DNA of 64,000 bases from an uncultured candidate division Zixibacteria bacterium. Its GTDB lineage: Bacteria > Zixibacteria > MSB-5A5 > UBA10806. A program made the position numbers and the translations under genes. The DNA lies in NCBI GenBank assembly GCA_963817915.1, contig CAWFQL010000018.1, positions 50,965 to 114,964 of the forward strand. The letters are read 5' to 3'. Below the pieces are notes generated by a model, which saw nothing but the letters and a program-made list of their open reading frames with translations, was not told the origin of the DNA and did no database searches. Shown here in pieces: positions 41,458 to 61,390 of this stretch; positions within the stretch are counted from its first letter, which is position 1, and every line of letters begins with the position of its first letter.

Positions 41458-41487
41458 TTGACGAAGTAGCGTCAATTGGATTATTTT
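41458..41487 (+). promoter_or_regulatory. Probable host promoter of the tRNA-Leu gene
   Basis: TTGACG-18 nt-TATTTT ending 13 nt before the tRNA 5' end. Confidence 0.55.
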
Positions 41488-41500
41488 GATAAGCTGTTGA

Positions 41501-41540
41501 GCGAAAGTGGCGGAACTGGCAGACGCGCTGGACTTAGGAT
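41501..41540 (+). tRNA. 5' half of tRNA-Leu(TAG), interrupted just after the anticodon loop (att site)
   Basis: GCGAAAG TG GCGGAACTGGCAGACGC G CTGGA CTTAGGA T; the expected CCAG, variable arm and T arm are replaced by unrelated sequence. Confidence 0.88.
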
Positions 41541-42232
41541 GCGACCGGGGGCTTTTTCTAACCCACCAAAACACATCGTATTATATTGTGATACATGGAA
41601 TTATACGAATTTTCGTCTTGGCTCATTTTGGCCTATTTTGGGTCATTTTGGCTCAGCTATAGACACTTTTTGGACACCAAAAGCAAATCAAACCTGCCAA
41701 ATTGGCATAGCGTTTTCAATAGGATTTACATCGTGATCTTATTCATATCATTTTTTAAAAAAATGGTAAGAATCAAACCAGTGCAGCAATTCTATCCTCA
41801 ACTAGGACTTTGCTTAAGAAGTCTAGTTTTAGAAAGACACGAGGCAAGATTAAGACTTGGATCTTGCTTGAATACAGGTGCATGCCATAAAAAGCTGCGA
41901 AGAATTAATAGGGCCGGCTTTCGGGTCATGAGCCGGATGTCACTCCCTAATACGGGACAATACTAAATAATAAAAAATAACAAGGGCCAAGACTTACTCC
42001 TTGTCGTCTTTTCCGCTATTGTCCTGTTTTATCCCGTATGACAGAGTATTATTTTAGAAAACAAAAACCTGAACTTCCTTTTTGCATTGGCCAAAATGTA
42101 AAAAATATCTTCTCTACCAGAATGGATAGCCCGAAGCTGGCATCGATGTTTCCTGTTGATTTGAATGCAAAAGTGTGATTAATTCAATCTTAATTGTCAT
42201 TTCTTGGTAATCTGCTTAAGCGCGGAGATTAT

Positions 42233-44815
42233 TTGAAAGATCATAATGGAAATTCCAGTTCGGAGCTGACCGAAGGCACAAAGGTCGGTAAATATCTGCT
42301 TGTTAATAAAATAGGCTCTGGCGGCATGGGTGATGTATACCTTGCCGAGGATACTGATCTAAATCGCAAGGTTGCCCTCAAATTCCTTTCGTCATCTATT
42401 GCTTCTGATATTGATTGCAAGGCACGTTTTATACGGGAGGCCCAGGCGGCTGCCAAGCTCAATCATCCCAATATAGTTACTATATATGAAGTCAGTGAAT
42501 TTAAGGGACGACCGTTCTTCGCTATGGAATATGTCGAGGGAGACTCTCTTAGGGATATTAGCGAGAAGCAAGACCTAACCCAGGCTCAAGTCATTGATAT
42601 TGCTATTCAAATATGTGACGGTCTTCAAGAGGCCCACGCTGCCGGGATTATTCACCGCGATATTAAGCCTTCCAATATTCTCGTTGATCAAAATAACCGC
42701 TGCAAATTGCTTGACTTCGGCCTGGCGGTTGTCCGAGGATGCGATCCTTTGACTAAGGATAAATCGACTTTGGGGACCGTTAGCTATATGTCACCTGAAC
42801 AGATTTTGGGCAAGGAAATCGATAGCAGGGCAGACATTTTTTCATTTGGTATCGTTTTGTATGAATTACTTAGCGGAGACCTTCCGTTCAACGGTGAGCA
42901 TGACGCCGGCATGATGTATTCGATCGTAAATAGCGACCCTATTCCCTTACAGAATATTATGCAAGATGCTTCACCGGAACTTGATAGTCTAATCAACCGT
43001 TTGCTGCAGAAATCCCCAGATGATCGTTTTCAATCAATGGCAGACGTTGCTATCGAATTGAGAAGAATCAAAGGCGATACGTCGGCTCCCAGCCGGCTGT
43101 CAGCATCATCATCGACCAGCTCGCGAAGAAGTGTTATCCGAAAGAAAATTTTGGGAATAATTATTCCGCTAATTGTAATTGGTATAGCTGCGCTATCCTA
43201 TTTTATCTTTGCTTTCAACCCATCTAAATCCTCATTAAAACGAGTAGTTGTGGTACCATTCCAGAATCAGACAGGAGACGCTTCGCTTGATCCATTTGGA
43301 CGTATGATCGCAGACTGGATATCGCAAGGACTTATTCAAACTAGATTGACCGAAGTCGTTTCTCCCGAAATAACACTCGGACCTGATGTTAATGAAGACA
43401 TCCGTTCGATTGCCGGGAAATCAGGATCAAACGCTGTCGTAGCGGGTTCTTTTTATAGGATCGCAGACAAGATTCTGGTTCAGGCAAAAATTATGGATTC
43501 CAATAATAAGCTGCTTCAGGCAATTGAACCTATCGCGACTCCAGCCGAGAAAATGATGGATGCGGTTGAAGCAATCCGCAAAAGCGTGACTGGTGCATTT
43601 ACCTTTGAGTTCAGCGAAAGATCTAAAGATATCAAAGCGATCGAAATAAAACCTCCATCTTACGAAGCCTATCAACAGTACTTTAGCGGAATTGACATAT
43701 TTATTAAGAGCGCTGGCACCGAGGGGCTTGAGTTTTTCGACAGAGCCTATACCTTAGATACATTATTTGTTTCAGCCCTTTTGTACTCCTTTTCTGTCTA
43801 TCAAAACCTTGGACTGAGGACTAAAGCTGATTCTGTGATACAGTTTTTAAACGCACGCCGCAGCCATCTTAACTCATTTCAGCAATTGTTGCTGGACGAA
43901 GGAATTAATGTGTTGTCCGGGGATCACGTCAAGGCTCTTATTATCGCCCGAGAATTGGCCGAAATTTCTCCAACGGATCTTTTTATTTATGGGTGGGGGC
44001 GTCAAGCGTATTTCGCAAATCACCCTCGGGAAGCGATAAAGGCGTTTAAGAGAATTGATTTAGAATCATATTCTATGCACTGCTGGATTCCTTACTGGAA
44101 TTTCCTTACCGCATCGTATCACACTCTGGGTGACTATGAGAATGAAATTCAAGCTTCACAAATGTCCCGCAAACTGTATCCAAATGACATTTCCACATTG
44201 AGTGATGAGATGCGGGCTTTTGCCGCCATGGGGAAATTCGATGGCGTAAGAGAATGTTTGACGATTTATGCAACTCTATTGAAACAGGATAATGCCGATT
44301 TGGTGGAATTTATGCGAACCGCCGCTGAGGAATTACGAGCTCATGGATATGAGGATAGTTCAATGGCGATCTTTAATCAGGCAATCCTGTGTTTCGAGAG
44401 CTTGCCATCTGAGAATATGAAAACCCGGCGTCTAAGTTATGGAACTCTGCTTTATGAAGCTCGCCGATGGAAGGAAGCGAGAGGCGTTTTCGAAGAGCTC
44501 GAAAGTCGGCTTATGGATAGCCTGGACCTCCGCGGAGCCTGGCTTGGGACTTCAGCGGCCAGGCTTGGGGATGGCGAAAAGGCGCGCAAAGTCTCAAGGT
44601 GGCTCGACAATATCAAACGACCATTTCTTTATGGAGCCCCAACCTATAATCAGGCATGCATTGCAGCCATACTGGGTGAAAGAGAAAAGGCTGTTGAGCT
44701 TCTCAATGAAAGCTTATTACAGGGGTATAGCTATTTTGATGTACACATTGATATGGATTTTGAATCCTTGAGAGATTACCCGCCATTCAAGAATCTGATG
44801 TCACCAAAGGACTAA
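42233..44815 (+). CDS. Membrane Ser/Thr (Hanks-type) protein kinase with extracytoplasmic TolB-N/CsgG-like and TPR sensor region, paralog 1
   Basis: GSGGMGDV, VALK, HRDIKPSN, DFG, YMSPEQ; one TM; VVVPFQNQTGD; TPR helices; TTG start with GGAG RBS matching paralog 2. Confidence 0.92.
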   Translation: MKDHNGNSSSELTEGTKVGKYLLVNKIGSGGMGDVYLAEDTDLNRKVALKFLSSSIASDIDCKARFIREAQAAAKLNHPNIVTIYEVSEFKGRPFFAMEYVEGDSLRDISEKQDLTQAQVIDIAIQICDGLQEAHAAGIIHRDIKPSNILVDQNNRCKLLDFGLAVVRGCDPLTKDKSTLGTVSYMSPEQILGKEIDSRADIFSFGIVLYELLSGDLPFNGEHDAGMMYSIVNSDPIPLQNIMQDASPELDSLINRLLQKSPDDRFQSMADVAIELRRIKGDTSAPSRLSASSSTSSRRSVIRKKILGIIIPLIVIGIAALSYFIFAFNPSKSSLKRVVVVPFQNQTGDASLDPFGRMIADWISQGLIQTRLTEVVSPEITLGPDVNEDIRSIAGKSGSNAVVAGSFYRIADKILVQAKIMDSNNKLLQAIEPIATPAEKMMDAVEAIRKSVTGAFTFEFSERSKDIKAIEIKPPSYEAYQQYFSGIDIFIKSAGTEGLEFFDRAYTLDTLFVSALLYSFSVYQNLGLRTKADSVIQFLNARRSHLNSFQQLLLDEGINVLSGDHVKALIIARELAEISPTDLFIYGWGRQAYFANHPREAIKAFKRIDLESYSMHCWIPYWNFLTASYHTLGDYENEIQASQMSRKLYPNDISTLSDEMRAFAAMGKFDGVRECLTIYATLLKQDNADLVEFMRTAAEELRAHGYEDSSMAIFNQAILCFESLPSENMKTRRLSYGTLLYEARRWKEARGVFEELESRLMDSLDLRGAWLGTSAARLGDGEKARKVSRWLDNIKRPFLYGAPTYNQACIAAILGEREKAVELLNESLLQGYSYFDVHIDMDFESLRDYPPFKNLMSPKD

Positions 44816-44838
44816 ATACTCCCGATACCCGATATGAC

Positions 44839-46434
44839 CTAGTCAGACACAATAATCTTGCGATCCACAACGATCTTATACCTTTTTACTTTGTTTGCCA
44901 GACCTTTGGGTGTTAGGCCCAATACTCGCGATGTTCGAAAGACGTTTCCCTTATTTTCTGTCAGCGCTTTTTTAATTATGGCTTTTTCAACATTCGCGAC
45001 GGCGTCTTTTATCGTACCGTTAAATTCACTCATGCCTGTTGCTTCAGCTGCAAGAGCGGCGAGACCGGGCGATAGATCACTGCAATCAATGATTCCGCTT
45101 GAGCTACAAGCGACGGCCGCCCGCTCGATTTCACTCTCTAACTCCCGGACATTGCCAGGCCAGTTGGATTTCACCAGAACGTCAAGTGCTCCAGGCGTTA
45201 TGGACAATTTTCCCCGGCAAAGCTTTATCCCGATCTTTCTCATGAAATGATTCACCAATAAAGGGATGTCTTCCCGGCGTTCACGAAGCGGTGGGAGATC
45301 GATCATGAATGTATTGAGACGGTAAAACAAATCATCACGGAATCTCTTAGATGCCATTTCCTCCTGAAGATTCTTATTAGTGGCCGAGATAACGCGAACA
45401 TTCACCCTTTCGGTTTTAGTTGATCCAAGAGGTCGTATCTCCCCGTTCTGAATTACTCTTAAAATCGCTGCTTGAATTGACAATGGGGCATCTCCTATTT
45501 CATCTAAGAATATCGAGCCCCCATCGGCTTCTTTGAATAAACCTATCTTGTTTCTAATCGCTCCGGTGAACGAGCCTTTCATGTGTCCGAAAAGCTCCGA
45601 TTCAAGTAAGGTCTCCGTCTTAAATCCACAATTGATGACGACAAACGGCTTATTCCTTCGCTCGCTGTTAAAATGAATCGCTTTAGCGACAAGGTCCTTG
45701 CCGGTTCCTGTTTCCCCGGTGATCATTATAGGAGAGTCGATGACGCTATATTGGGACGCCAGCATCAGGGCTTTTTTCATGACAGCTGATTTACCGATGA
45801 TATTTTCAAATGCCAGAATATCGCTTATCTCGCTTTTCAATCGGAGATTTTCCTGTTTCAGCTTCTGCTTCGAGATATTCAGCAGTTCATTTGCTCCAGT
45901 CAAATCTTCCAGAAGCTTGACATTAGCCAAAACCTGCGCCGATATAGGTATTAGGATTTCCATGAGATAGCAGTGTTTTTCTTCGAATGGCTGCTTGTTA
46001 CTGCTTCTTATCAATGTCATCAGTCCAATTGTCTTACCGCGCACAATCATCGGATAACAAATAATCGATTTATACTTCCCTTTGCTGGAATCAATTTCCT
46101 TGAATCGGCTGTCGTTGTCAAGGTCGTCGATTTTGAGCATTTGCTTGTTATTGAGTACCCACCCCAAAAGCTGAGTGCTGATTGTGTAGGGAATGTCCTC
46201 GCGATTCTGACTATGGACTCGGATAATGGTCGATAGATCCTCTGCTGTCGAATCAGGTATAAAGCTTATAACCCCTTGGTCTGAGTCTGTCCTGGCTACG
46301 AGCTCCGCAACCATGGTGTTCATGATAAGGTTTGATTCCCTAATCCCACAAATCTTGGCCATTATATTGACGGCGAACGCGAAATCGTCAGGAATTCTAC
46401 TGGAACTTGGATTTTCCGAATTATGATTATTCAC
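44839..46434 (-). CDS. Sigma54-dependent enhancer-binding protein (GAF-AAA+-Fis HTH)
   Basis: N-terminal GAF; GETGTGKD; ESELFGHMKGSFTGA; FLDEIG; WPGNVRELE; C-terminal HTH. Confidence 0.93.
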   Translation of the reverse strand: MNNHNSENPSSSRIPDDFAFAVNIMAKICGIRESNLIMNTMVAELVARTDSDQGVISFIPDSTAEDLSTIIRVHSQNREDIPYTISTQLLGWVLNNKQMLKIDDLDNDSRFKEIDSSKGKYKSIICYPMIVRGKTIGLMTLIRSSNKQPFEEKHCYLMEILIPISAQVLANVKLLEDLTGANELLNISKQKLKQENLRLKSEISDILAFENIIGKSAVMKKALMLASQYSVIDSPIMITGETGTGKDLVAKAIHFNSERRNKPFVVINCGFKTETLLESELFGHMKGSFTGAIRNKIGLFKEADGGSIFLDEIGDAPLSIQAAILRVIQNGEIRPLGSTKTERVNVRVISATNKNLQEEMASKRFRDDLFYRLNTFMIDLPPLRERREDIPLLVNHFMRKIGIKLCRGKLSITPGALDVLVKSNWPGNVRELESEIERAAVACSSSGIIDCSDLSPGLAALAAEATGMSEFNGTIKDAVANVEKAIIKKALTENKGNVFRTSRVLGLTPKGLANKVKRYKIVVDRKIIVSD

Positions 46435-46733
46435 TGCTTCTTACCCTTAATAAGCCTCACAAATTAAAATTGGGAGTTAGATATGCCGCTGTCAAGGGAA
46501 ACGTTCAGCAACTGTTGTCGGGCCAGTAGCCCCCAATAAGGGTAGTTTGTTCTTTCCCGATATACTTTGTTCCATAATTGGGCGTTTTTTTCGCTGCGGA
46601 CACGATCGAAGGTTTCAATCAATTGTATGAGATTGACGGAGCGACGAAATAAAGATAAATTATAAAAGCCGGAAGCAGTACGATATGTCCAATTGCAAAT
46701 ATTAAAAACCGGCAGCCTTAATGCGGAGATTAT

Positions 46734-49313
46734 TTGAAAGATCATAATGGAAAATCCTGTTCGGAGCTGACCGAAGGCACAAAGGTCGGTAAATATCTGC
46801 TTGTTAATAAAATAGGCTCTGGCGGCATGGGTGATGTATACCTTGCCGAGGATACTGATCTAAATCGTAAGGTTGCCCTCAAATTCCTGTCGTCATCTCT
46901 AGCCTCTGATATTGATTGCAAGGCACGCTTTATACGTGAAGCTCAGGCGGCGGCCAAGCTTAATCATCCTAACATTATCACAATCCATGAGGTCAGTGAA
47001 TTCCGAGGGCGGCCGTTCTTCGCTATGGAGTATGTCGAGGGAGACTCCCTTAGGGACATTAGCAAGAAGCAAGACCTAACCCAGGCGCAAGTCATTGATA
47101 TTGCTATTCAAATATGTGACGGTCTTCAGGAAGCTCACGCGGCCGGGATTATTCACCGCGATATTAAGCCTTCCAATATTCTCGTAGATCAAAATAATCG
47201 CTGCAAATTACTTGATTTCGGCCTAGCGCTTGTACGAGGCTGCGATCCTTTGACCAAGGATAAATCGACCTTGGGGACTGTCAGCTATATGTCACCGGAA
47301 CAAATCCTGTGCAAGGAAATCGATAACAGGGCAGACATTTTTTCATTTGGTATTGTTTTGTATGAATTACTTAGCGGAGACCTTCCGTTCAAAGGTGAGC
47401 ATGACGCCGGCATGATGTACTCGATCGTAAATGGCGACCCTATTCCCTTACAGAATATTATGCAGGATGTTCCGTCGGAGCTTGATGGTCTAATCAACCG
47501 TTTGCTGCAGAAATCACCAGATGATCGTTTTCAGTCAATGGCTGATGTGGCACATGAGTTGAGAAGGATTAGAGGCGATACGTCGGCTTCTGATTTGTCC
47601 TTAAAATTGAGACCAACAAAACCTCAAATGCGGTTTATCAGAAGTAGAGTCTTTCGCATTGCTGCTGCGGTGGTTATCATTGGCATAGCGCTGTCGGCAT
47701 ATTTCTTCAGCCCACTTAGTTCATCGAAATCTACACTAAAACGCGTGGTTGTCGCGCCATTTGAAAATAAAACCGGAGACTCTTCCCTTGATCCGTTTGG
47801 ACGGATGATCGCTGATTGGACTACTCAGAGTCTTCTGCAGACTGGGCTGGCCGAAGTCATTCCACCGGAGAACTTGACTGAGTTGGAAAATCCTCAAAGC
47901 ATCCGTTTGATTGCCCATGAAACAAATGCAAACGCAATAGTTGTAGGTTCTTATTATAAAATTGGTCGGACAATCCAGATTCAGGCGAAAGTAATGGATG
48001 CCAATGAAAAACTCTTGCTCGCGATTAACCCCGTGGCAGTCCCGGCCGAGAAAATGATGGATGCGCTTGATTCCGTGACCTATGAAGTGAGGGGAGCCCT
48101 TGCATTTGTATTCGATGAACGTTTAGAAGAACTTAAGATATACTTTCCAAAGCCTCCAATGTATGAAGCTTATCGCTCATATATCATTGGTCTTGATCTG
48201 TTCACGAATAACTCAGGGTCCCAGGGAATTGAATACTTCAACCGAGCTTACTCTTTGGATACAACTTTTTATTTCCCACTCATGTATACTTTTTATGTTT
48301 ATTATAATGTAGGTCAGTTTGCACGGGCTGATTCCGTCCTGCGATTTATAGACTTAAGGCGTGATCGTCTTAGCTCCCTTCAACAATTGATTCTAGACTT
48401 ATATATCAATACGATGTCCGGCGATCTTGATAAGGCTTTAATCGCGGCCCGTGAGGTCGCCAGGATTTCGCCGAATCCCGGCCCCCTGTATGATTTGGGT
48501 CGGACAGCATTCATTGCAAATCGTCCACGGGAGGCAATTGATGTCTTCAAGAGAATCGATACGGAAGATTGCTCGATGAGAGGCTGGGTTGCATATTGGC
48601 ATTACTTCGCTCTTTCTTATCATATGCTTGGGGACTTTAGGAAGGAGCTTGAAATAGTCAAAAAGGCTCGCAAACTTTATCCCAATAATATTTTGGCCCT
48701 GAGTGATGAGATGCTGGCTGTTGCCGCCCTGGGAAAGATTGACCGAGTTAGAAGCTGTTTGCAGGAGTATGCCGCGCTTTCGAAACAGGAAAATACCGAT
48801 CAGGGAAGCTTTATGATTAAAGCTGCTTCTGAATTGAGGGCTCACGGGTATGAAGATAGCGCCATGGTGATTCTTAACCTGGCAATTCGTTGGTATGAAA
48901 GCCGTACACCCGATGAGCTGAAGCCCTTGAGAAACTCTTATGCCGCATCATTATATGGGGCGCGTCGGTGGGATCAGTCAAAAATAATATTTGAGGAGCT
49001 TGCAAAGGAATCTCCGGACGTCTGGGAATATCGGGGATGGATCGGTCTGACCGCAGCGAGATTAGGCGATCGCGAAAAAGCATTGGAAATTTCCGAGTGG
49101 CTGGGCACCATTAAGCAGCCATATCTTTTTGGGGGTAATACTTATTATCGCTCATGCATAGCGGCAATCTTAGGGGATAAAGAAGAAGTCGTTACGCTTC
49201 TCAGAGAGAGCCTGTCGCAGGGGTACAGCTATTTCCAAACACATTTTGATATGGATTTTGAATCTTTGAGGGATTACCCCCCATTCATTGAATTGATGAA
49301 ACCAAAAGGCTGA
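46734..49313 (+). CDS. Membrane Ser/Thr protein kinase with TolB-N/CsgG-like and TPR sensor region, paralog 2
   Basis: Same motifs as 42233-44815; kinase domain nearly identical, sensor region diverged. Confidence 0.92.
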   Translation: MKDHNGKSCSELTEGTKVGKYLLVNKIGSGGMGDVYLAEDTDLNRKVALKFLSSSLASDIDCKARFIREAQAAAKLNHPNIITIHEVSEFRGRPFFAMEYVEGDSLRDISKKQDLTQAQVIDIAIQICDGLQEAHAAGIIHRDIKPSNILVDQNNRCKLLDFGLALVRGCDPLTKDKSTLGTVSYMSPEQILCKEIDNRADIFSFGIVLYELLSGDLPFKGEHDAGMMYSIVNGDPIPLQNIMQDVPSELDGLINRLLQKSPDDRFQSMADVAHELRRIRGDTSASDLSLKLRPTKPQMRFIRSRVFRIAAAVVIIGIALSAYFFSPLSSSKSTLKRVVVAPFENKTGDSSLDPFGRMIADWTTQSLLQTGLAEVIPPENLTELENPQSIRLIAHETNANAIVVGSYYKIGRTIQIQAKVMDANEKLLLAINPVAVPAEKMMDALDSVTYEVRGALAFVFDERLEELKIYFPKPPMYEAYRSYIIGLDLFTNNSGSQGIEYFNRAYSLDTTFYFPLMYTFYVYYNVGQFARADSVLRFIDLRRDRLSSLQQLILDLYINTMSGDLDKALIAAREVARISPNPGPLYDLGRTAFIANRPREAIDVFKRIDTEDCSMRGWVAYWHYFALSYHMLGDFRKELEIVKKARKLYPNNILALSDEMLAVAALGKIDRVRSCLQEYAALSKQENTDQGSFMIKAASELRAHGYEDSAMVILNLAIRWYESRTPDELKPLRNSYAASLYGARRWDQSKIIFEELAKESPDVWEYRGWIGLTAARLGDREKALEISEWLGTIKQPYLFGGNTYYRSCIAAILGDKEEVVTLLRESLSQGYSYFQTHFDMDFESLRDYPPFIELMKPKG

Positions 49314-49617
49314 TTATCCCGATCACAAGATTTATATAGCGAGATTATCCCTGTTAAATTTTATTTTTATCGTGCTGATGAGTGTCATGAGTCCGATAAT
49401 TTCACTACCAAAGATCATCCCGTAGCCAAGAATTGATTTAAATTTACTTTCGAGAGAGTTAAATTCCCGAAATTACGTCTCTCGATCAAGATCATCAATT
49501 TTGAGCTTGCTCTTGTTATTCAAGACCCAGCCAAGAATTTAAGCTCTTATTATATAGGAGATATCTTCACTATTATGTCTGTGGACACGAATAATAGCCG
49601 ATAAATCTCCGGACCAA

Positions 49618-49825
49618 GGTAGTAAGTTCGCGCTTAAGGTACTTAGTACCGTAATCAAATTTTGTCCAATGCCACATTCAAATAGCTAACACTAAGAGTA
49701 TGAATATGTTGTGAGCATATGGGCCAATGCCAAAAAGCGGTATGAATTATGTATACTATTTAAGTAGCGCGACTTTTTCCGATCGAAGCATTCTGCGAAT
49801 TAAATTGGATGGCAACTAAATAGAA
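49618..49825 (+). promoter_or_regulatory. Candidate enhancer sites and imperfect sigma54 promoter for the secreted-protein array
   Basis: GGTAGTAAGTTCG (49618) and palindrome GGTACTTAGTACC (49638) 20 bp apart; TGGCAACTAAATAGAA (49810-49825) has the -24 GG but GA instead of GC at -12. Confidence 0.4.
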
Positions 49826-49854
49826 TGCAGAACCAGGAGTTCAAAAGGACAATT

Positions 49855-50145
49855 ATGAAAAGCCACAATAAAACTTCGGAAAAGAAGCAAAATTCATTTT
49901 CAGGCCTTAACGATAATAAGATTGAGCTCAACATCACCAAGCCCGGTGAAATCAGACTTAGTATCTTCGATTCAATGGGTAAATCCATCTACCAATGGAC
50001 AGGATATGCTTTCAAATCCGGGGCAACCTCGATTAGATGGAACTACAAGGACAACCAAGGAAATAACCTGCCACCCGGGGCCTATTCTTACACAATCCAA
50101 TCTCCCGACGGAAATTCAAACGGGAAAATTACACTTCATAAATAA
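49855..50145 (+). CDS. Stand-alone FlgD-Ig / sorting-domain-like small protein
   Basis: IRLSIFDSMGKSI...WNYKDNQGNNLPPGAYSY pattern; RBS aagga; no signal peptide. Confidence 0.7.
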   Translation: MKSHNKTSEKKQNSFSGLNDNKIELNITKPGEIRLSIFDSMGKSIYQWTGYAFKSGATSIRWNYKDNQGNNLPPGAYSYTIQSPDGNSNGKITLHK

Positions 50146-50198
50146 GACAAAATTATGGATGCGAAAAAAAATATAAAGATTGAAAAGAGGATAAAAAA

Positions 50199-52370
50199 AT
50201 GAATGGATCGTTAAAGGTTTACTTGGTCGCTGCGGCATTCGCAGTAGTGCTATTTAACTTAACGGTTGCAAATCCGGCTTCGGCCCAGAATGTTGAATTT
50301 GTTTCCTCGACGCTCTGGTCTGCGTACAACGATGTTAAAGTTATTAATAATTACGCCTTCTGCGCCTGCGAATATGGATTAAAGATATTGGATATATCAA
50401 ATCCTGCCATGCCGTCACATGCAGGGCAGTTTTCTTATCGGGGATGCAATGCGATTGACGTTCTTGGCGATTATGCCTACATTGCTGCAGGTGATTCAAG
50501 TCTTCAAATAATAAACATCTCCAATCCGGCCGACCCGATATTGACGGGGAATTTCAATACTTCCGGGCACTCCAATGATGTTATTGTTTATGGAAATATT
50601 GCCTATGTGGTTAACGGTGAATCCGGACTACAAATCATCAGCGTTGCGAATCCGGCAAATCCAACATTGATTGGAAGCTACGATACACCAGGGGCGGCGT
50701 TAAATGTATTTTTGGAAAATAATTATACCTATATAGCCGATGGCAATTCCGGACTTCAAATAATCGACGTCGCCAATCCGTCCAGCCCGGTATTTGCCGG
50801 AAGTTGCAGCCTATCATTTTATTCTCAAGATGTTTATGTCACCGAGAATTACGCATATGTTGTCGGGAGTGGCAGAGGTGGGGCGCTCGGCATAATAGAC
50901 ATTTCCACTCCAGCAAATCCCATACTTAATGGAAGCTGCTATACTATTAGAGCTTTTGGCGTTATTGCATATGGTGGTTACGTTTACATATCTGGTGAAC
51001 AGCTTCTTGGCGGATATCCGTTTCCTAGGCATGTCGGTGGAGGCCTTGAAATATACGACGTCAATGACGCTTCTAATCCGCAACTATATGGCAGCTATTA
51101 TTATGATTCCCGGGGATCAACAAATCACGCATTTATTTCCGACAATTACGCCTATCTGACGGACAACGCATCTGGCTTCCGCGTCATGAACATTTCCGAT
51201 CCTGCCAATCCAACGCTGGCTGGAGGATATTATTGCCAGGCAGTTAACAACATCTACATCTCTGACAATTACGCTTACGTGGGAAGTGAATATTTGGGAT
51301 TTTTTATTGTTGATATAGCAGATCCCACCCGTCCGCTTTTGGCGGGAGTCTATGAGGATTCCATTCAGGACGTTTTTGTTTCGGGAAGCTATGCTTATAC
51401 GGTATACTCAGAAAGGTCTGCCGGTCATCTTGAAATTATTAATATAGACAATCCCAGCTCTCCGATATTTGCCGGAAGGTATGATATTCCCGGGCATTTC
51501 CTGGGATTCTACGTTTCTGGTAATTATGCTTATATAACTTGGGAAAATTCATCTTATTCAAAGCATTTTGAAATCATAAACATTGCAGACCCGGCCAATC
51601 CTTCTCTAGTAAGCAGATTCGGTCGAGGACTCGACGTTTTTATTTCGGGCCATTATGCCTATGTACCGGATGGTTTTAATGGCCTTAAGATAATCGATGT
51701 CAGCAATCCGATTAATCCTGTCTTAACAGGATGCTACGACACTACAGGATATGTCTACAGCGCATTCGTCTCCGGAGAATATGCTTATATCCGCGACCGA
51801 TCGTTTGGACTACAAATCATTAGCGTCGCCGATCGAGCTCATCCTACATTAATCGGAAGTTATAACATTCCCGATTCCGGTCAGCGCATCTATGTCTCTG
51901 GTAATTTCGTATATTTAACCAATACCGACGTCCAGATTATAGACGTTTCTGACCCGGCTAATCCTGCATTGGTAAGCAATATTGTTACGCCTGGCATCGC
52001 CAAAGATGTTGCTGTCTCTGGTGATTATATTTACGTGGCAGATTGGGGATCGCTTCAGGTTCTTCGATTCACACCAACAGGAATTGAAGATAGTGATATG
52101 CTACCCGGCCATTTCTCCCTCTCCCAAAACTACCCCAACCCCTTTAACGCCCAGACCACAATTCAATATTCTTTGCCGTCGCAATCGGAAATCTCTATCG
52201 ACATCTATGACATCCTCGGTCGCAAAGTAGAGAGGCTTGTAGAGGGAGTAAAGCCAGCAGGGAATCACCAGGCTACATGGGATGCTGGCGATCAGGCGTC
52301 GGGGATTTATTTCTATAGAATCAAGGCCGGCGATAAAGTCGAGACGAAAAAAATGATGATGATGAAGTAA
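50199..52370 (+). CDS. Secreted LVIVD-repeat protein with C-terminal YPNPFN sorting domain
   Basis: Signal peptide; more than 12 repeats of V.V.G.YAY.....[24 protein letters not shown]. Confidence 0.9.
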   Translation: MNGSLKVYLVAAAFAVVLFNLTVANPASAQNVEFVSSTLWSAYNDVKVINNYAFCACEYGLKILDISNPAMPSHAGQFSYRGCNAIDVLGDYAYIAAGDSSLQIINISNPADPILTGNFNTSGHSNDVIVYGNIAYVVNGESGLQIISVANPANPTLIGSYDTPGAALNVFLENNYTYIADGNSGLQIIDVANPSSPVFAGSCSLSFYSQDVYVTENYAYVVGSGRGGALGIIDISTPANPILNGSCYTIRAFGVIAYGGYVYISGEQLLGGYPFPRHVGGGLEIYDVNDASNPQLYGSYYYDSRGSTNHAFISDNYAYLTDNASGFRVMNISDPANPTLAGGYYCQAVNNIYISDNYAYVGSEYLGFFIVDIADPTRPLLAGVYEDSIQDVFVSGSYAYTVYSERSAGHLEIINIDNPSSPIFAGRYDIPGHFLGFYVSGNYAYITWENSSYSKHFEIINIADPANPSLVSRFGRGLDVFISGHYAYVPDGFNGLKIIDVSNPINPVLTGCYDTTGYVYSAFVSGEYAYIRDRSFGLQIISVADRAHPTLIGSYNIPDSGQRIYVSGNFVYLTNTDVQIIDVSDPANPALVSNIVTPGIAKDVAVSGDYIYVADWGSLQVLRFTPTGIEDSDMLPGHFSLSQNYPNPFNAQTTIQYSLPSQSEISIDIYDILGRKVERLVEGVKPAGNHQATWDAGDQASGIYFYRIKAGDKVETKKMMMMK

Positions 52371-52420
52371 GGCGATATTGATAGATAGTGATTGAAATAT
52401 TATTTCCCTGGAGGTTTCAA

Positions 52421-54382
52421 ATGCCAAGATGCTACTGTTTAGTGATTGTGTTAGTACTGCTCTGACTCGAGGCGCCGCTGTATGGCGGCAATTATGGATC
52501 GGGCGAAAAGCAAAAACTACTGCTCGCAGGTGAAAGCGTTGCCGGTCAAAAAATTACTTCTGAAAATACCGACCCGGATAACCCGATCCTTCTCAGCGGC
52601 GATTGTTCCGATTATATCGATCTATCCGGGCAATCCCTGCCCATCTTGGCAGTTGGCACAACTGTAGGAGCCACTAATAACTATGGGCCATTCCCTATCA
52701 CAGCCTCCTTCCTGGCACGGTTTGCGGTGGTATCCAGGCGCATGTGGAGGACCGGATAAGACCTATAAATGGACGGCGCCTGCCGATGGGTTCTACACGA
52801 TCTCACTCCTTGGAAGCTCTTATGATACCGGCTTGCTGCTATACAACTTCACTTGCCCGAGCCGAACCCTTTTATCCTGAAGATTTTATTGCTGGAAACG
52901 ATGACGTCTGGGGTATGCAATCTGAATTGTTTTGCCAGGAGTTTTCTGCCGGGCAGGAGATTCTGATTGTCGTTGATGGGTATGACAATAGCTATGGCAA
53001 TTATCAATTACGCATAAAGAATGCACCATCGCCGCGCGATCCCGATTCATTTATTACCTCGATCATGCAAACAGAGCATATCCCCGGGTTGTCAGCCTGT
53101 GCCATATCTGACGGTGAGGTAATTTGGTCTGGAAACTACGGACATGCGAATATCGCTCAAGATATCGAACCTACAGATTCCACCATCTATGTATTATGTT
53201 CGATTTCGAAAACCTTTGTCGCCGTGGCATTAATGCAGCTCTGGGAAGATGGTTTGTTTGGATTGGATGATGACATCAGCCAATATCTTCCTTGGGAAGT
53301 ACACAATCCATATTATCCCTCTTCTCCTATCACCTTCCGGATGCTGATGACTCATACTTCTGGGATTATTGATAATTGGAGTATGCTTAATCAGCTGTTA
53401 CACTTGGGGTGGCGATTCTCCTATTCCGCTGGGGGAATTCCTGATGAATTATCTAACTCCTGAGGGATCCTATTATTCTGGGGCCAACTTCGGCAATTAT
53501 TTGCCCGGCACGGTTTACAATTATGGCAATGTGGCAACTGCACTGGCGGCATACTTAGTCGAGAAGATCAATCCCGATTCTCTGTCGTTTGAAGATTACT
53601 GCCAACGTTCAATTTTCTCGCCGCTCGGCATGAATAACAGCTCCTGGTTCCTGGGCAATTTGGACCTGGATGATATCGCCGTCCCGTACTATTGGAGTGG
53701 CGGCAATTATAATTCAATTCCGCAACGCGGCCAGCCCTGGTATCCATGCGGTTCACTCAAGACGAGCACCAATCAACTGGCCCACTACTTGATCGCTATC
53801 ATGCAGCATGGTCAGTTTGAAGGCGCTAGAATCCTGGACAGTACTACAGTAGAAATGATCACTGCTATTCAACTTCCCGATGTCGAACCCAATACGGGAT
53901 TATTCTGGGTCACATATAGACCCGGTAATAGAGAAGCTTGGGGGCATAACGGAGAATGGAGCGGTTACAGAACCCAAATGTGGTATAGCCCGGCGGAAAA
54001 TACGGGCGTCATTGTCCTGACCAATGGCATGCCTAACTTGGGTCACTGGTATATCACGCAGGGGCTTTTTGAATATATCTCGTACCGTACAGAGGTCTCG
54101 GAATCATCATCGGCTCCAAATCAAATCACCCTCTCCCAAAACTACCCCAATCCCTTCAATGCCCAGACCACGATAAAATACTCGTTGCCATCCCCATCCG
54201 AAGTCTCAATCGATATTTTCGATATTCTCGGCCGCAAAGTTGAAAGACTTATAGAGGGAATGAAACCCGCTGGCTACAATCAGGCAGTATGGGATGCCAG
54301 CGATCAGGCATCGGGGATGTATTTCTACCGAATCAAGGCCGGCGACAAGGTCGAGACGAAAAAGATGATGCTGATGAAATAA
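52421..54382 (+). pseudogene. Secreted class C beta-lactamase-family serine hydrolase with N-terminal beta-sandwich and C-terminal sorting domain; disrupted as sequenced
   Basis: RBS ggagg-ATG 52421; in-frame TGA at 52463; +1 shifts near 52695, 52860, 53399; SxxK (CSISK), YxN (YGN), HNG motifs. The breaks may be assembly errors. Confidence 0.75.
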
Positions 54383-54460
54383 GATTTAATCTGTCCGGGC
54401 AGGCGCCCCGACAGCACTCGAAATATATATTATGATAACCCGAAGCAATTGGAGCAAAAG

Positions 54461-55736
54461 ATGAAAAGAATTGCTATGATTTTATTTGCTGTAATTTGGC
54501 TGCTGCCAGTATCGGCAGTCCTTGGCCAAACAACATGGGAAAAATATCCCGGCAATCCGATTCTTGAACCCGGACTTCCGGGATCATGGGATGAAATGAC
54601 TCTAGTTAGTTGTGTAATTTTCGAAGATAACTATTATAAAATGTGGTACATCGGGTATGATGGATCAACGGTTCGTATTGGTTTTGCCAGTTCGCCGGAT
54701 GGAATCCGCTGGACTAGAGCCGATAGCGTCAATCCCGTTCTGGACGTTGGGCCGGCTGGTTCATTCGATGATGAAGGCGTAACATTCTCCCTGGGTCATT
54801 CACGATGGAGATATCTACAAGATGTGGTACTCGGGTTATGACGGAGTCGGATCCCATACTGACCGCATAGGATATGCAACATCGCGCGATGGGATCTCCT
54901 GGCAGAAGGCTGATAGTATCAATCCGGTTATGGGCTATGGCCCGGCATCGTGGGAAAGCCGAGGCGTTTGGGGCTCCCGGGTCCTGTTCGATGGTCAGGT
55001 TTATAAGATGTGGTACGCCGGTTATAATAATGTTAATGTTCGTATCGGTTACGCTACTTCAATTGACGGCACAACGTGGGTCAAGGAAGAAAGCGCTAAT
55101 CCTGTTCTGGATATTGGAGCCTATGGCACCTGGGAAGATTCCGAGGTCAATGACCCGATGGTAATATTTGCCAATTCCACCTATTATATGTGGTATTTGG
55201 GTAATGATTACCACGGGGCGAGAGGATGTATCGGATATGCAACTTCGCCCGACGGCATTACTTGGGAGAAAGCAGATTTAACAAACCCTGTCCTGCAGCC
55301 GGGACCTTTCGGTTCCTTCGATGATCTTTGTGTCAGGAGTCCATTGGTGTTTATCGAAAATAACATTTACAGAATGTGGTATGTCGGTATTAGCCACGAT
55401 ATAATTTGGGGAACAGGATATGCTACTGATTCGTCTATGACATCAATAGAAAACAATGATCTTTTTATACCGAATCAATTTTCCCTCTCCCAAAACTACC
55501 CGAACCCCTTCAACGCCCAGACCACGATTCAGTATTCTTTGCCAATTCAATCGGATGTTTCAATTGACATCTATGACATCCTCGGCCGCAAGATAGAGAC
55601 CCTCGCAGAAGGAATGAAACCGGCGGGAAATCATCAAGCGATCTGGGATGCCGGCGATCAGGCATCGGGGATGTATTTCTACAGAATCAAGGCAGGCAAT
55701 AAAATTGAGACGAAAAAGATGATGCTGATGAAATGA
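54461..55736 (+). CDS. Secreted five-bladed beta-propeller glycoside-hydrolase-like protein (GH32/43/130-like fold) with sorting domain; +1 frameshift near 54786
   Basis: Five repeats of NPVL..G..G.WD....P.V...Y.MWY.G....IG.A.S.DG..W; YPNPFN tail. Confidence 0.8.
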
Positions 55737-55993
55737 TTGTTTATAAAGATTCCTTCTTGACAGATATTAAAAAAGTAATATCTTTATACTACATTGATTT
55801 GCAGGCTTCCCCAGGCTGCAGATATCGAAAATCTAATATCAATCACAAACGGCTCTAGAATGAAGATTGTCTATGAAAAGAGCCTTAGTCATTTGTCGAA
55901 TACAACAAGGATATTTATGCCTATTTTTCAAGGCAGCATAGTCATTCGTGTGCGCAAACAAGAGAATATTACTCGGAATAATTGGAGGAAGAG

Positions 55994-57268
55994 ATGAAGA
56001 GGTTCTACTGTTTTTTAGCAACGCTGATAGTTTTGTGTAGCGCCTTCTCGCTACCTTTGCTAGCGCATGCCCAGAATATCGAATATGTCGGCTCATATGA
56101 TTCACCCGGTGATGCTCGGGGGATTTGTGTAGTTGGCAATTACGCATATGTGGCGGATGGGATGACTAGGTCTCCAGATTATCGATGTATCCAACCCAGT
56201 CATTCCCGTACTATGCCGGAAATTACAACACTCCGGACTATGCCAAAGATATTTTTATCGTCGGCCCCTATGCTTACTTGGCAGATGAGCAATCCGGTCT
56301 TCAAATTATCGACATTTCTAACCCGGCCAATCCGGTATATAAGGGAAGTTACGATACGCCAGGCGTTGCGATGGATGTTTTTGTTATGGGTAATTACGCA
56401 TTTGTGGCGGATTGGAATCTAATGGTCTTCAAATTATTAACGTCTCCAACCCGGCCAATCCAGTGTATGCAGGAAGCTATGATACGGTTGATTGTCTCTG
56501 GCGTTTTTGTATTGGGCAATTACGCTTATGTATCAGTTTATTGGAACATACGGAGCGGTTTCGGAGGAGGGCATTGGATATTGGACGTATCTGACCCAGT
56601 AAATCCTGTTTATGCCGGGAGCTATGCTCGGAAATTTGCACTGCAAGCGGCGTTTTTGTATTGGGCAATTACGCGTATGTGGCGTCATGGACTTTGGGTC
56701 TTCTTATTATCGACGTCTCCAATCCGGCCAATCCAGTATATGTTAGGAACTATCATACGCCTCACAGATGCTTTGGGCGTATTTGTATTGGGCAATTACG
56801 CTTATATCGCTGACGCAGATTCGGGCCTTCTTATTATCGATGTTCCAACCCCTCAAGCCCGTTATTGGCAGGAAACCATGATACGCCGGGCTCTGCTGAG
56901 GGCATATTTGTTTTGGGAAATTACGTCTATGTGGCGGACTGGTCTTCGCTTCAGATTCTCCGCTTTACGCCCACCGGAATTGCAGAAGGCGAGAAACTGC
57001 CGACCAATTTCTCCCTCTCCCAAAACTACCCCAATCCTTTCAACGCCCAGACCACGATTCAGTATTCTTTGCCTACGCAATCTGATTGTGTCAATTGACA
57101 TCTTCGACATCCTTGGCCGCAAGATAGAGACGCTCGCAGAAGGAATGAAACCGGCGGGAAATCATCAGAGCGATTTGGGATGCCGGCGATCAGGCGTCGG
57201 GGATTTATTTCTACAGAATAAAGGCTGGGGATAAGATCGAGACCAAGAAGATGACGATGATGAAATGA
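55994..57268 (+). pseudogene. Second secreted LVIVD-repeat protein with sorting domain; many frameshifts as sequenced
   Basis: RBS ggagg, signal peptide; LVIVD repeats scattered over ORFs 55982, 56185, 56412, 56865; ends ...KKMTMMK* at 57268. Confidence 0.75.
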
Positions 57269-57302
57269 TTATTTTTACTAACAAGCAACTTTGGAGGAAA
57301 AT

Positions 57303-59756
57303 ATGAAACTGGCGTTTTTGACTTTGTGCTTAGTACTAATCCCTTGCATCTTGTCATTTGCCTTCGTGCCGCTTTTTGACGCGCGACTCGATTTTGAAGT
57401 TGGATCACCACCCAGCTCTATAGTTGCCTCAGATTTTGATGGTGATGGCCAAAGTGACCTGGCAGTTGGTTGTACAGGCGGGATTTCGATTATGAAAAAT
57501 AATGGCGACGGGACATTCCGGCTTCAATTTGAATTTCCCATGAGATGGTCTGGTAGAGATATCTTCGCTGCCGATCTTGATGGCGATGGTGTTGACGATC
57601 TAATAGCCACGAATGGAGACAGCATTTCAATTTTAATAAATAATGGAGACGGGACGTTCCTGCCGAATGTCGGCTTCATTGCAGGAAATATGCCCGTTTC
57701 AGTTTTTGCAGCTGATCTCAATGGCGACGGAGATAATGATATCGCCGTAGCAAATTATTTATCGAATAATATTTCCATACTGCTGAATAATGGCAATGGG
57801 ACTTTCCAGGCTCCGGTGAATTATGAGGCTGGAAGCGGACCGAATACAGTATTTTCGGCTGACCTAGACAACGATGGTGATAAAGACCTTGTTGCGTCAA
57901 ATTCAGATAGCCGCAACATCTCATTGTTGATTAACAACGGCAATGGAACCTTTCAAGCCGCTAGTAATTACAATCTATGGGGACCCCAAAGCTGGTCAAT
58001 AATAGCGGCCGATCTCAATAATGATGGGTACTACGATCTGGCGGTTAGTCAAACTGGTCCGCCGGGCGATATAGAAATAAGCGGAGTTTCAGTCTTATTG
58101 AATAATCAAAATGGAACCTTTGGAACACCGATCTTTTACAATACACCTAACGGCTCTGCTTCAGTTTTTGCATCAAACTTAGATGGCGATGGCGATAATG
58201 ACTTGATAACCGCAAACTACTATAGCGGTAATGTCAGCATTTTAAGCAATCACGGCGATGGAACATTTGAAGAACCCATAAATTATGCGGTTGGCACTGG
58301 GCCAAGTTCAGTATATGCAATTGATGTTGACGGCGATGGAAATAATGACATTGTTACAGCAAATTCAGATAGTTATACTATCTCATTCCTGAAGAATAAA
58401 GGCAGCGGAAATTTTATTCAGGAACCAAGTTATTCTGTTGGATATTACCCCTTTTCCATCTTTGCATCAGATTTCAACGGCGACGGGGATAAGGATCTGG
58501 TCGTAACAAACGGCGATTACTATCTCAACTACCAGATATCTATCTTGATGAATGACGGTAATGGGGCTTTTGAGCCGGCAGTCAATTACGCATTGGCCTC
58601 CGGGCCAACGTCGGTCATTGGAGCCGATCTTGATGGCGATGGCGATAATGATATAGCAGTAACACGCTGCAATTGCGTCACGGTATTCATCAATAACGGC
58701 AATGGAATATTTCAATTGATGGGTAATTATCAGGTTCCTTCCTGTCCGTCGTCTGTTTACGCGGCCGACCTTGATGGCGATGGGGATAATGACCTGGTAA
58801 CTTCAAATGAGAGGGCAGATAACATTTCTATCTTACTAAATAGCGGCGATGGAGCATTTGGAGAAGCCATTAATATTGGCGCAGGAGAAGGGCCGATCTC
58901 GGTGCTTTCCGCTGATTTTGACGGTGATGGTGATAATGATCTAGCGGTCGCCAACGATCGTTCCAATGACATTTTTGTTTGGAACAACAATGGCGACGGG
59001 ACATTTCAAGCGCCAGTAATTTACCCAGTAGGGCGAACCCTCAAATCGCTTTTCGCAGCCGATCTAAATAATGATGGCCATATTGACTTAATAGCTTCGG
59101 GTGGTCCAGGTCGTCCTCGTGGTGGTATCTCGCTATTTTTTAATAATGGCGATGGAACATTTTCTCCAGGCGCCTTTTATGAAGCTGGCTTTAATCCAAA
59201 AGTAGTTGTCGCAGCCAACCTTGATAATGATGGAGATAATGATTTGGCGGTGGTAAATTATGATGACAACAATATTTCGCTTTTTCTAAATGACGGTGAG
59301 GGTGTATTTCATCAAGCGATCGTCCGATATGGCTCTGGAGGCTACCCAAGTTCAGCCGCTATCGCTGATTTTGACGGAGATGGCGATAATGACATAGCGG
59401 TGGCGAATTCTGCCTCTCATACAGTCTCTATTTTGACTAATAGCACAATCTTAACTTCCATAGGCGATCGACACGATGATGGTTCGATCCCCAAATTCCT
59501 CTCTCTATCCCAAAGCTACCCCAATCCATTCAATGCCCAGACTATGATTCAATACTCAATACCAACGCAATCAAATGTATCGATTGACATATTCGATATT
59601 CTCGGTCGAAAGATAGAAACGATTGCAGAGGGAATGAAACCTGTAGGCAATCATCAGGCTATATGGGATGCCGGCGATCAGGCTTCCGGGATTTATTTCT
59701 ACAGAATCAAGGCTGGGGATAAGATCGAGACGAAAAAAATGATGATGATGAAATAA
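57303..59756 (+). CDS. Secreted FG-GAP/VCBS repeat protein with C-terminal sorting domain
   Basis: About 14 D[LF]DGDGD.D[LI]...N.G.G.F repeats; [12 protein letters not shown]. Confidence 0.9.
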   Translation: MKLAFLTLCLVLIPCILSFAFVPLFDARLDFEVGSPPSSIVASDFDGDGQSDLAVGCTGGISIMKNNGDGTFRLQFEFPMRWSGRDIFAADLDGDGVDDLIATNGDSISILINNGDGTFLPNVGFIAGNMPVSVFAADLNGDGDNDIAVANYLSNNISILLNNGNGTFQAPVNYEAGSGPNTVFSADLDNDGDKDLVASNSDSRNISLLINNGNGTFQAASNYNLWGPQSWSIIAADLNNDGYYDLAVSQTGPPGDIEISGVSVLLNNQNGTFGTPIFYNTPNGSASVFASNLDGDGDNDLITANYYSGNVSILSNHGDGTFEEPINYAVGTGPSSVYAIDVDGDGNNDIVTANSDSYTISFLKNKGSGNFIQEPSYSVGYYPFSIFASDFNGDGDKDLVVTNGDYYLNYQISILMNDGNGAFEPAVNYALASGPTSVIGADLDGDGDNDIAVTRCNCVTVFINNGNGIFQLMGNYQVPSCPSSVYAADLDGDGDNDLVTSNERADNISILLNSGDGAFGEAINIGAGEGPISVLSADFDGDGDNDLAVANDRSNDIFVWNNNGDGTFQAPVIYPVGRTLKSLFAADLNNDGHIDLIASGGPGRPRGGISLFFNNGDGTFSPGAFYEAGFNPKVVVAANLDNDGDNDLAVVNYDDNNISLFLNDGEGVFHQAIVRYGSGGYPSSAAIADFDGDGDNDIAVANSASHTVSILTNSTILTSIGDRHDDGSIPKFLSLSQSYPNPFNAQTMIQYSIPTQSNVSIDIFDILGRKIETIAEGMKPVGNHQAIWDAGDQASGIYFYRIKAGDKIETKKMMMMK

Positions 59757-60130
59757 GACAGCAGACCAACAGTCGAATTATGAAGCGCGGCGTTCGGCCA
59801 TTGTTTTCTTAGAATGACTTACTACAGTGAATTCATTTTCTGAAAAAGCTGTTGTCTGTCAAGCTTTTCTGGGTTTGAGACCCGAAAGTCAGATTGACCC
59901 GTTAATTCTAATCTTTTCTTATAATCGTCACAATTATCATATTTGAAGATATTGAAGTTGAAAGAATGATGCCGGGATATGAGAAGCATATGTTATGGTT
60001 GAAAGAGAATGAGTCGCCGATGACATTGTAAAACAAATATTATTTGGCCCCGACCTGCGCCTGGAAGTAATGGTTACGTTAGAAAGAACTTGCTTATTGA
60101 TTTGGCGTCTCTTAATTTAAAATATGTTAC

Positions 60131-60416
60131 GTCCAAAAAAGTTTGAAAACGTACACTTTTTGGACACCAGGCCAAAGGGTGCCTCCGCGGTGAATACCGT
60201 AACATGTTGTGGAGTAAACAATTAGAGTGCTGCGAAAGTGGCGGAACTGGCAGACGCGCTGGACTTAGGATGCGACCGGGGCCTTTTTCTAACCCACCAA
60301 AACACATCGTATTATAATGTGATACATGGAATTATACGAATTTTCGTCTTGGCTCACTTTGGCCTATTTGGGGCCGTTTTGGCTTATTTATAGACACTTT
60401 TTGGACACCCAAAAGC
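60131..60416 (+). repeat. attP-like junction between tandem islands: arm motifs, tRNA 5' half, then right arm
   Basis: ACACTTTTTGGACACC at 60153-60168 and 60394-60409 (also 41663-41678); inverted partial copy GTCCAAAAAAGT at 60131-60142; 60232-60416 repeats 41501-41685. Confidence 0.8.
60232..60271 (+). tRNA. Second copy of the tRNA-Leu(TAG) 5' half
   Basis: Identical 40 nt to 41501-41540, again followed by GCGACCGGGG. Confidence 0.88.
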
Positions 60417-60578
60417 ATTTTCAAAAAAGCAATCATGCCAAAATGGCAGTAGCATTTTGCCTTGTTGAAATTGGATGGACCCAATTTCCTTTTGCTTCGA
60501 TTTGAACAAAATCCTCAGCAAGCTTTGATTATATTATTAAGTGCATCCTTAAGCAAATCATCGGAAGAAGAGTACGAT

Positions 60579-61319: not shown

Positions 61320-61390
61320 TACTTACGCTTCTTTCATAAATCCAAAAAGTCTCGAGTATCGCGGCAAGCAAAATAAAAGCAAGTTGTCAT

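Follow-up and report, generated by a model that had tools for sequence, protein, structure and literature searches.

Truncated tRNA-Leu(TAG) genes in the window

The window considered here, a stretch of 64,000 nucleotides (nt), covers positions 50965–114964 of contig C18 and ends where that contig ends. It comes from the genome of an uncultured candidate division Zixibacteria bacterium (G000), a metagenome-assembled genome of 22 contigs that is 93.9% complete. The names carried by the closest relatives of its trigger factor likewise place the host in that candidate division. Two truncated copies of a tRNA-Leu(TAG) gene lie in the window, and the complete gene is found on a second contig of the same genome, C17, next to a tyrosine integrase gene. 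The copies and the complete gene (Table 1) appear to be attachment sites of two integrated islands, referred to below as A and B. Throughout, other G numbers denote relatives and L numbers denote fetched loci.

The two copies in the window are an exact 40-nt repeat, the 40-mer, corresponding to nt 1–40 of a type II tRNA-Leu with anticodon TAG. Both break off one base past the anticodon loop (CTTAGGA), where GCGACC is present instead of the stem sequence CCAG. The repeat continues beyond the 40-mer into an adjoining arm, and 41501–41682 and 60232–60413 are 95% identical over 182 nt. ARAGORN finds no tRNA anywhere in the window. Exact counts over the genome give three 40-nt 5′ halves (41501, 60232 and C17:3755–3794) and one 3′ half, which is on C17. 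An earlier, sequence-only reading of this DNA had described a promoter-preceded 5′ half at 41501 that stops after the loop, an identical 40-nt recurrence at 60232 followed by a common arm, and the lack of a tRNA 3′ half in the window; all three descriptions are borne out. The two arms that follow the 40-mers differ by 5% and are therefore not a collapsed repeat, which answers one concern about misassembly.

The host-type promoter that precedes the first copy would now drive a truncated 5′ half only. No terminator was found behind this half: the fold of 41501–41565 is weaker than those of shuffled sequences (z +2.0) and no terminator-like site starts there, so the host promoter may read into island A.

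Table 1. Features of the tRNA-Leu(TAG) locus and its islands. Positions are those of the window unless prefixed with C17.
Feature	Position	Strand	Basis and remarks
tRNA-Leu(TAG) 5′ half, nt 1–40, displaced; attL core (B-O)	41501..41540	+	Exact repeat match, alignment
Second tRNA-Leu(TAG) 5′ half, element-borne; core of hybrid P-O-P′ junction	60232..60271	+	Exact repeat match, alignment
Host-type promoter of the tRNA, sigma-70-like, TTGACG-18-TATTTT	41458..41487	+	Promoter scan; 13 nt 5′ of the first copy
P′ arm of island A	41541..41682	+	95% identical to 60272–60413
Six phased 10–11-nt sites in the P′ arm of island A, putatively arm-type	41620, 41630, 41640, 41650, 41661, 41672		GGCTCA, GGCCTA, GGGTCA, GGCTCA, AGACAC, GGACAC, respectively
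Remnant P arm of island A, 79 nt	60153..60231	+	Begins within an arm-type motif; 100% identical to C17:3676–3754
P′ arm of island B	60272..60413	+	Arm motif at 60394–60409; alignment, motif search
Excisionase-like gene (xis)	C17:2409–2609		66 residues; HTH_17/excisionase family; upstream of integrase and tRNA, same strand
Tyrosine integrase gene (int)	C17:2693–3748		351 residues; PF00589, E = 1.6e-39; phrog_1, E = 3.9e-82
Complete tRNA-Leu(TAG) gene	C17:3755–3837		ARAGORN call C17:3754–3837
Left-flank host gene	35262..36392	+	376 residues, no Pfam family; marker for the native left side of this locus
Island A cargo	41683..60152		Pfam: two Ser/Thr kinase-TPR, sigma-54 activator; with type IX secretion system (T9SS) tails: LVIVD, FG-GAP, beta-lactamase-like, GH130-like
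Island B, left part, cut by the contig end	60414..64000		Four minus-strand open reading frames (ORFs): one TPR protein, three without a confident family

The complete tRNA gene and its integrase

The third copy of the 5′ half continues into a complete gene, which is the sole tRNA-Leu(TAG) among the 45 tRNAs of the genome. The integrase stop codon lies 6 nt ahead of the tRNA start called by ARAGORN, and tig, clpP and clpX are found downstream of the tRNA. RHRHY-type motifs can be read in the integrase sequence, and Pfam places an Int_N/SAM-like domain at residues 62–152 and the catalytic domain at residues 160–314. To its best phage matches, one of which comes from a record with the name Salmonella phage BIS08P22, the integrase shows 30–32% identity. 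Other integrase-like sequence in the genome comprises only a 68-residue fragment on contig C12 and two distant recombinase-like matches (22–26% identity). The fragment, an isolated piece of a related integrase (C12:288141–288344, minus strand), is 46% identical and has no adjoining tRNA.

The sequence-only reading had predicted further copies of the 5′ half together with a complete tRNA-Leu(TAG) gene, placed at the right end of the last island. The third copy, which is part of the single complete gene beside the integrase, agrees with this, but it lies on C17 and not rightward on the same contig.

Organization of the attachment sites

Alignment of the three sites gives the arrangement B-O-P′ at 41501, P-O-P′ at 60232 and P-O-B′ at C17:3755. 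The shared block O is the tRNA 5′ half, which ends just after the anticodon loop at nt 40, whereas the usual elements share the 3′ part. At 41501 the block lies between the site's own left flank and a P′ arm, and on C17 it lies between a P arm and the tRNA 3′ half. Attachment sites of the attP type that carry the tRNA from nt 1 onward beside int are seen in P-O-P′ (60153–60413) and in P-O-B′ on C17. This series of junctions supports the proposal that each element brings the tRNA's 5′ half, a reversal of the usual geometry, and the P-O-P′ junction supports the further proposal that a second element entered the rebuilt tRNA. The arrangement, a 5′ fragment upstream of a co-oriented intact tDNA, is one that Islander-type criteria permit.

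The arms contain related short repeats. The 16-mer ACACTTTTTGGACACC occurs four times in the genome, always in the two P and two P′ arms (including 41663–41678, 60153–60168 and 60394–60409), and from these four copies we infer that there are two islands. In the P′ arm the motif lies 118 nt past the shared block and is preceded by four further GGNNNA units in 10-nt phase. We read the repeats on both arms as putative arm-type integrase sites.

Island A spans 41541–60231 (18.7 kb). Island B extends from 60272 to the end of the window, across an unassembled gap and through C17:1–3754, for at least 7.5 kb; in all, at least 26 kb of inserted DNA now parts the two host flanks. Pfam detects no integrase or excisionase in island A, and a tblastn search with the integrase finds its last 28 codons only, because homology to the P arm begins within the arm motif at 60153. 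This is read as the trace of a deletion that would have removed xis and int from island A and fixed the island in place.

The empty site in relatives

The 40-mer is matched with at most three mismatches in 32 of 40 relatives, as one copy in each. All 29 of the relative copies that were fetched run on into the 3′ half and form an intact tRNA. Downstream, tig is present on the same strand in 26 of these 29 loci; of the others, L010 has it on the opposite side, and in the short loci L014 and L022 it does not appear. The sequence CTTGAC, read by eye, stands about 35 nt before the tRNA in 14 of the 29 loci, in a CTTGAC...TAttaT layout like that at 41458. Upstream DNA was fetched for 10 family relatives, and in 8 of them the host gene at the left of the locus has a counterpart that is 69–81% identical and lies 1–4 kb upstream of the tRNA. 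The misses are G006 and a 3.7-kb contig of G002, and in G004 the gene is inverted. The island ORFs have no match in the upstream stretches of those 10 relatives, except for the T9SS tail domain, which is shared. The sequence to the left of 41501 and that to the right of the C17 tRNA thus make up a single conserved host locus, now in two halves. On this point, too, the relatives favor the sequence-only reading: the intact copy in each is single, the left-flank gene and tig lie on either side, and the genes found at 41.5–60.3 kb are missing.

In two relatives, G016 and G022, remnants of an integrase lie immediately upstream of tRNA-Leu(TAG). The G016 locus (L023:1079–1585) has, in order, xis, the promoter-like site that precedes int, about 38 codons of the integrase, that genome's sole tRNA-Leu(TAG) and tig. 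No displaced 5′ half was found in the G016 genome, which is 99% complete.

The integrase family

Our survey of related integrases covers 123 loci, 43 from genome contigs and 80 from metagenome contigs, some of which are mutual duplicates (L042/L122, L049/L140 and the near-identical L134–L136 and L138). Evaluable loci are those with a homologue at least 40% identical whose C-terminus lies inside the locus (73 of the 123). An intact tRNA follows int directly and on the same strand in 40 of the 73. An intact tRNA on the opposite strand, the conventional 3′ geometry, is present in 7; no tRNA lies downstream of int in 21, and the contig ends too soon after int in the remaining 5. The same-strand tRNAs in the 40 loci are Leu (TAG, TAA, CAG, CAA), SeC, Arg (TCT, CCT, CCG), Lys (CTT, TTT), Met, His, Ser(TGA) and Gln, and four remoter homologues with 37–39% identity (L052, L055, L058 and L063) add Ala(CGC) and Thr(GGT). 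Phyla named among the hits include Zixibacteria, Latescibacteria, Elusimicrobia and Thermodesulfobacteriota.

Several loci reproduce parts of the Zixibacteria arrangement. The order xis-int-tRNA-Leu(TAG)-tig recurs in L091, where the integrase is 88% identical, and int-tRNA-tig recurs in L096 and L103, all on independent contigs. Displaced 5′ halves are seen in L115, where tRNA-Lys nt 1–38 is repeated 8.5 kb upstream of the intact gene, and in L062, where tRNA-Arg nt 1–42 is repeated 2 kb upstream of the intact gene; L162 is a conventional case with a 3′ repeat of 48 nt. Near-identical integrases accompany a P-O-B′ site with intact tRNA-Arg(CCT) in L106 and a P-O-P′ site with the 5′ half only in L038, and the two sites diverge after nt 40. 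The shared block ends at nt 40 in G000, nt 38 in L115, nt 42 in L062 and nt 40 in the L038/L106 pair, which is the boundary of the anticodon stem-loop.

Two of the fetched loci hold additional tRNA-like sequence. In L038 (7101–7224) a second partial type II tRNA 5′ half, Leu(CAA)-like, lies about 45 nt past the tRNA-Arg(CCT) half and ends at its own anticodon loop. It may be the fossil of an earlier target, since sister integrases target tRNA-Leu. Downstream of int in L045 (4561–4760) is tRNA-like sequence that comprises an acceptor end, an anticodon arm and a T arm; the D arm is apparently missing, and ARAGORN makes no call here.

In an integrase tree, the G000 sequence falls in a group of 15 rows (support 87), of which 12 have a same-strand tRNA, two come from short contigs and the last is L038. 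This is a quick tree, with support from the Shimodaira–Hasegawa-like approximate likelihood ratio test (SH-aLRT) only and a midpoint root; ten rows whose matched stretch contains an in-frame stop and all rows lacking residues 1–45 or the C-terminus were left out.

Most members of the family have a direct repeat with an 11-nt period over the last integrase codons, about 60–90 nt before the tRNA end. The commonest form of this repeat is GGACAC-N5-GGACAC, and the alternatives GGCACA, GTCACA, TCACGACA and GTGGGTGAT are each found in both half-sites. That both half-sites change together suggests a protein-binding site and not a coding constraint. Of 54 distinct P arms, 39 contain an exact repeat of 7 nt or more with a period of 10–12, where mononucleotide shuffles give an expectation of 1.0. 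The spacing of the P′ motif is also kept: L115 has the same motif as G000, at 120 nt after the core compared with 118 nt, although the two integrases are only about 50% identical and their target tRNAs differ.

In the seven opposite-strand cases the tRNAs are genuine, and their 3′ ends adjoin a P arm of the same type, at a distance that is also similar. One of the two orientations can be found next to the other in the tree. L043 (5′ geometry, 4170–4330) and L137 (3′ geometry, 2000–2160) have integrases that are 61% identical, are tree sisters (support 100) and adjoin an identical tRNA-Arg(TCT). Because the anticodon stem-loop has dyad symmetry and is located close to mid-gene, turning the core round would swap the carried half while nearly keeping the distance from arm to core. 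The adjacency of the tRNAs, as distinct from the far ends of the two elements, suggests that such a flip of orientation separates L043 from L137.

Taken jointly, these observations may describe a large cross-phylum group of bacterial anticodon-loop integrases in which carrying the 5′ half is the norm, all attP sites follow one fixed grammar, targets number at least 16 tRNA species and sister integrases flip between 5′ and 3′ geometry. Single-copy host tRNAs would come under the integrase promoter, and permanently so where int is later deleted, as in G016. We offer this family-wide picture tentatively, at somewhat less than even odds.

Transcription of the rebuilt tRNA

A promoter-like sequence, TTGACA-16-TAAATT, is located at C17:2639–2666, 27 nt before the integrase start. 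Its two boxes align in three elements: those of G000 and L091 and the remnant in G016. In G016, the deletion within int leaves this site 160 nt before the only tRNA-Leu(TAG) 5′ half found there. Most likely, an element-borne promoter would drive the rebuilt tRNA through co-transcription with int and processing by RNase P. The only tRNA-Leu(TAG) of the genome is no longer behind its own promoter, which would tie expression of this tRNA to a mobile element.

Integration model and alternative explanations

We favor a tandem pair of tyrosine-integrase islands in a single tRNA-Leu(TAG) gene, with reversed target orientation, and give this reading a probability of about 0.8. The attP of the family would consist of the int 3′ end, a pair of arm sites, a spacer of about 60 nt, tRNA nt 1–40 and a P′ arm in which these sites recur after about 120 nt. 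Strand exchange in or beside the anticodon loop would strand the host promoter and the host 5′ half at the left end (attL, 41501); at the right end (attR, C17:3755), beside tig-clpP-clpX, the host 3′ half would be joined to the 5′ half from the element. The P-O-P′ junction at 60232 would then have arisen when a second, related element integrated at this site. Island A would subsequently have lost xis-int by a deletion ending inside the arm site and would now be fixed; island B, with its xis and int genes, may be able to excise. Transcription of the working tRNA would start within the element, probably at the conserved promoter-like site that closely precedes int, and RNase P would trim the transcript.

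Several observations weigh against this model. Residues 1–60 of the integrase give no Pfam match to an arm-binding domain at E ≤ 0.01, and the quick integrase tree has many open forks. No sigma-70-like promoter was found within 350 nt upstream of the complete tRNA, and promoter-like sites before int in G000 are at chance level (3 found, 3.8 expected). Island A is without integrase or excisionase and has a host-like content of guanine plus cytosine (GC) of 0.441 (41541–60152), compared with 0.448 for the genome, so that it is regarded as an island because of its two arms and because relatives lack it. The array is divided between C18 and C17. Neither the right end of C18 nor the left end of C17 shares sequence with the other or with a further contig. 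Up to the point of divergence, 119 nt are identical at 60153–60271 and on C17, where a mis-join of contigs is possible. No junction-spanning reads were found in the one public run listed, a DNA run that holds 5% of sampled words; at these sites it yielded only short pieces and tRNA halves of other organisms.

The assembly points invite an explanation in which only island A is integrated and island B is a free or excised circle (int-P-O-P′-...), the assembler having swapped partners at the 119-nt P-O repeat. The site at 60232 would then be the attP of the circle, and the complete tRNA would follow island A. The exactness of that repeat, the contig break 3.7 kb into island B without overlap, the GC of island B, which differs from that of the host, and the want of reads across the junctions all fit this account. 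What makes it unlikely is that the xis-int-tRNA-Leu-tig layout is found in the independent assemblies of L091, L096 and L103 and in the remnants of G016 and G022; with the attR layout recurring in this way, C17 needs no mis-join. A circle would alter the count of islands but not the 5′-half geometry, since its attP would display that geometry directly. We consider it still less probable that island A is the cargo of one composite island, with the inner P-O-P′ left by internal rearrangement or partial duplication of an att site. The lack of an integrase in island A, its GC and its host-like accessory gene families would suit such an origin, but at the inner site all three parts, namely P, the tRNA 5′ half starting at nt 1 and P′, are correctly ordered and in register, and L038 is in the same P-O-P′ state for another member of the family. 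The P′ arms, moreover, are 95% and not 100% identical, which fits two related elements better than a recent duplication. Least of all do we expect the copies to be tRNA pseudogene fragments that arose by segmental duplication or as an assembly artefact with no mobile element involved. Genomic tRNA fragments are common, and this is a metagenome-assembled genome in 22 contigs. An integrase and an excisionase abut the tRNA, however, the arm motif is found nowhere else in the genome, the site is empty in relatives and the same architecture is present in dozens of unrelated contigs.

Cargo of the islands

The cargo of island A is treated as accessory, probably not displaced core sequence. The possibility that the island is a moved core segment was considered and rejected: its sigma-54 activator has a match (65%) in one relative only, G004, where the gene is not syntenic. 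In that genome a kinase gene lies beside the sigma-54 activator, and the kinase is 31% identical. Within island A, two paralogous Ser/Thr kinase-TPR genes surround a divergent GAF/sigma-54 activator (42194–49313), and the first 300 nt of the two kinase genes are 91% identical. Further on (49825–59756), six ORFs for secreted proteins have closely related 3′ sequence of 80–280 nt that encodes a Por/T9SS sorting domain. The LVIVD and FG-GAP repeat genes contain many internal repeats. A T9SS-tailed gene of the beta-lactamase family (52744–54382) is split into overlapping ORFs, 52744–53463 and 53369–54382, by a frameshift or an assembly error.

Island B is AT-rich in its left part, with a GC of 0.364 (60272–64000). 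Searches of Pfam, NCBIfam and PHROGs gave nothing informative for its ORFs at 60579–63868 or for those at C17:3–1025, and the ORF at C17:1062–1391 has a partial RuvB_N/AAA match only. At C17:708–1391 a RuvB_N/AAA-like ATPase is seemingly broken into short ORFs in different frames, possibly as a pseudogene or through an assembly error.

Comparison with known systems

The 5′-half geometry is rare but has been known since 2002, and the Zixibacteria array is a further member of that kind; the known picture is unchanged by it. The fragment that island finders and annotators mostly look for is a 3′ one, downstream of the tRNA, and a 5′ half upstream is easily labelled a pseudogene, with the result that the island is overlooked. 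The family data provide a ready set of attP/attB pairs for many tRNAs in one layout, with one natural 5′/3′ flip, and should be useful for asking how integrases switch target and orientation. The family-level regularities were not found in the literature searched, in which 5′-end wording is poorly searchable and subscription journals were outside the scope, and we do not claim that they are unpublished.

Classical anticodon-loop integrases are exemplified by those of P22 and HP1. An anticodon-loop sublocation class of tRNA integrases was defined by Williams (2002; PMC100330), as papers that cite it relate. The G000 integrase resembles the classical enzymes in being of the tyrosine type and in having a shared block bounded at the symmetric anticodon stem-loop, and seven members of its family use the 3′ half. 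It differs from the classical class in that the G000 element carries the 5′ half instead of the 3′ half, which is why the host promoter is left behind.

The pTN3-like integrases are of the SSV type, in which the integrase gene is split upon integration. In Thermococcales, a tRNA gene's 5′ half serves as their attB, and the tRNA is made whole again (Cossu et al. 2017, as summarized in PMC8371274). The same summary states that the tRNA is expressed from the integrase promoter, with RNase P processing of the co-transcript in pTN3, and that use of the 5′ half is seldom met in bacteria (PMC8371274). In contrast to the archaeal pTN3 system, the bacterial lambda/P22-like integrase gene described here stays whole, arm-type repeats are present on both arms and an excisionase gene lies upstream.

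Bacterial islands integrated upstream of a tRNA gene are also described in Klebsiella, at the 5′ end of arg2; according to the account of the repeat given there, it comprises the 5′ acceptor stem, D-stem and D-loop (bioRxiv 10.1101/2020.11.02.365908). Whereas that repeat, as described, stops in the D-loop, those of G000, L115, L062 and L038/L106 reach the anticodon loop (nt 38–42). The configuration filter of Islander, in its published description, permits a 5′ fragment upstream (PMC4383910).

The closest counterparts are the tDNA islands with reversed target orientation reported by Zhao and Williams (2002, J Bacteriol 184:859, PMC139527). As the citing papers present them, the 5′-distal part of the tRNA is recombined, the 5′ fragment is displaced upstream and the gene is rebuilt at the integrase end. 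The Zixibacteria locus shares with these islands, so described, the displaced 5′ fragment and the rebuilt tRNA beside the integrase. It differs in being a tandem pair, one member of which is without an integrase, and in having an integrase from a cross-phylum group in which the 5′ geometry is common.

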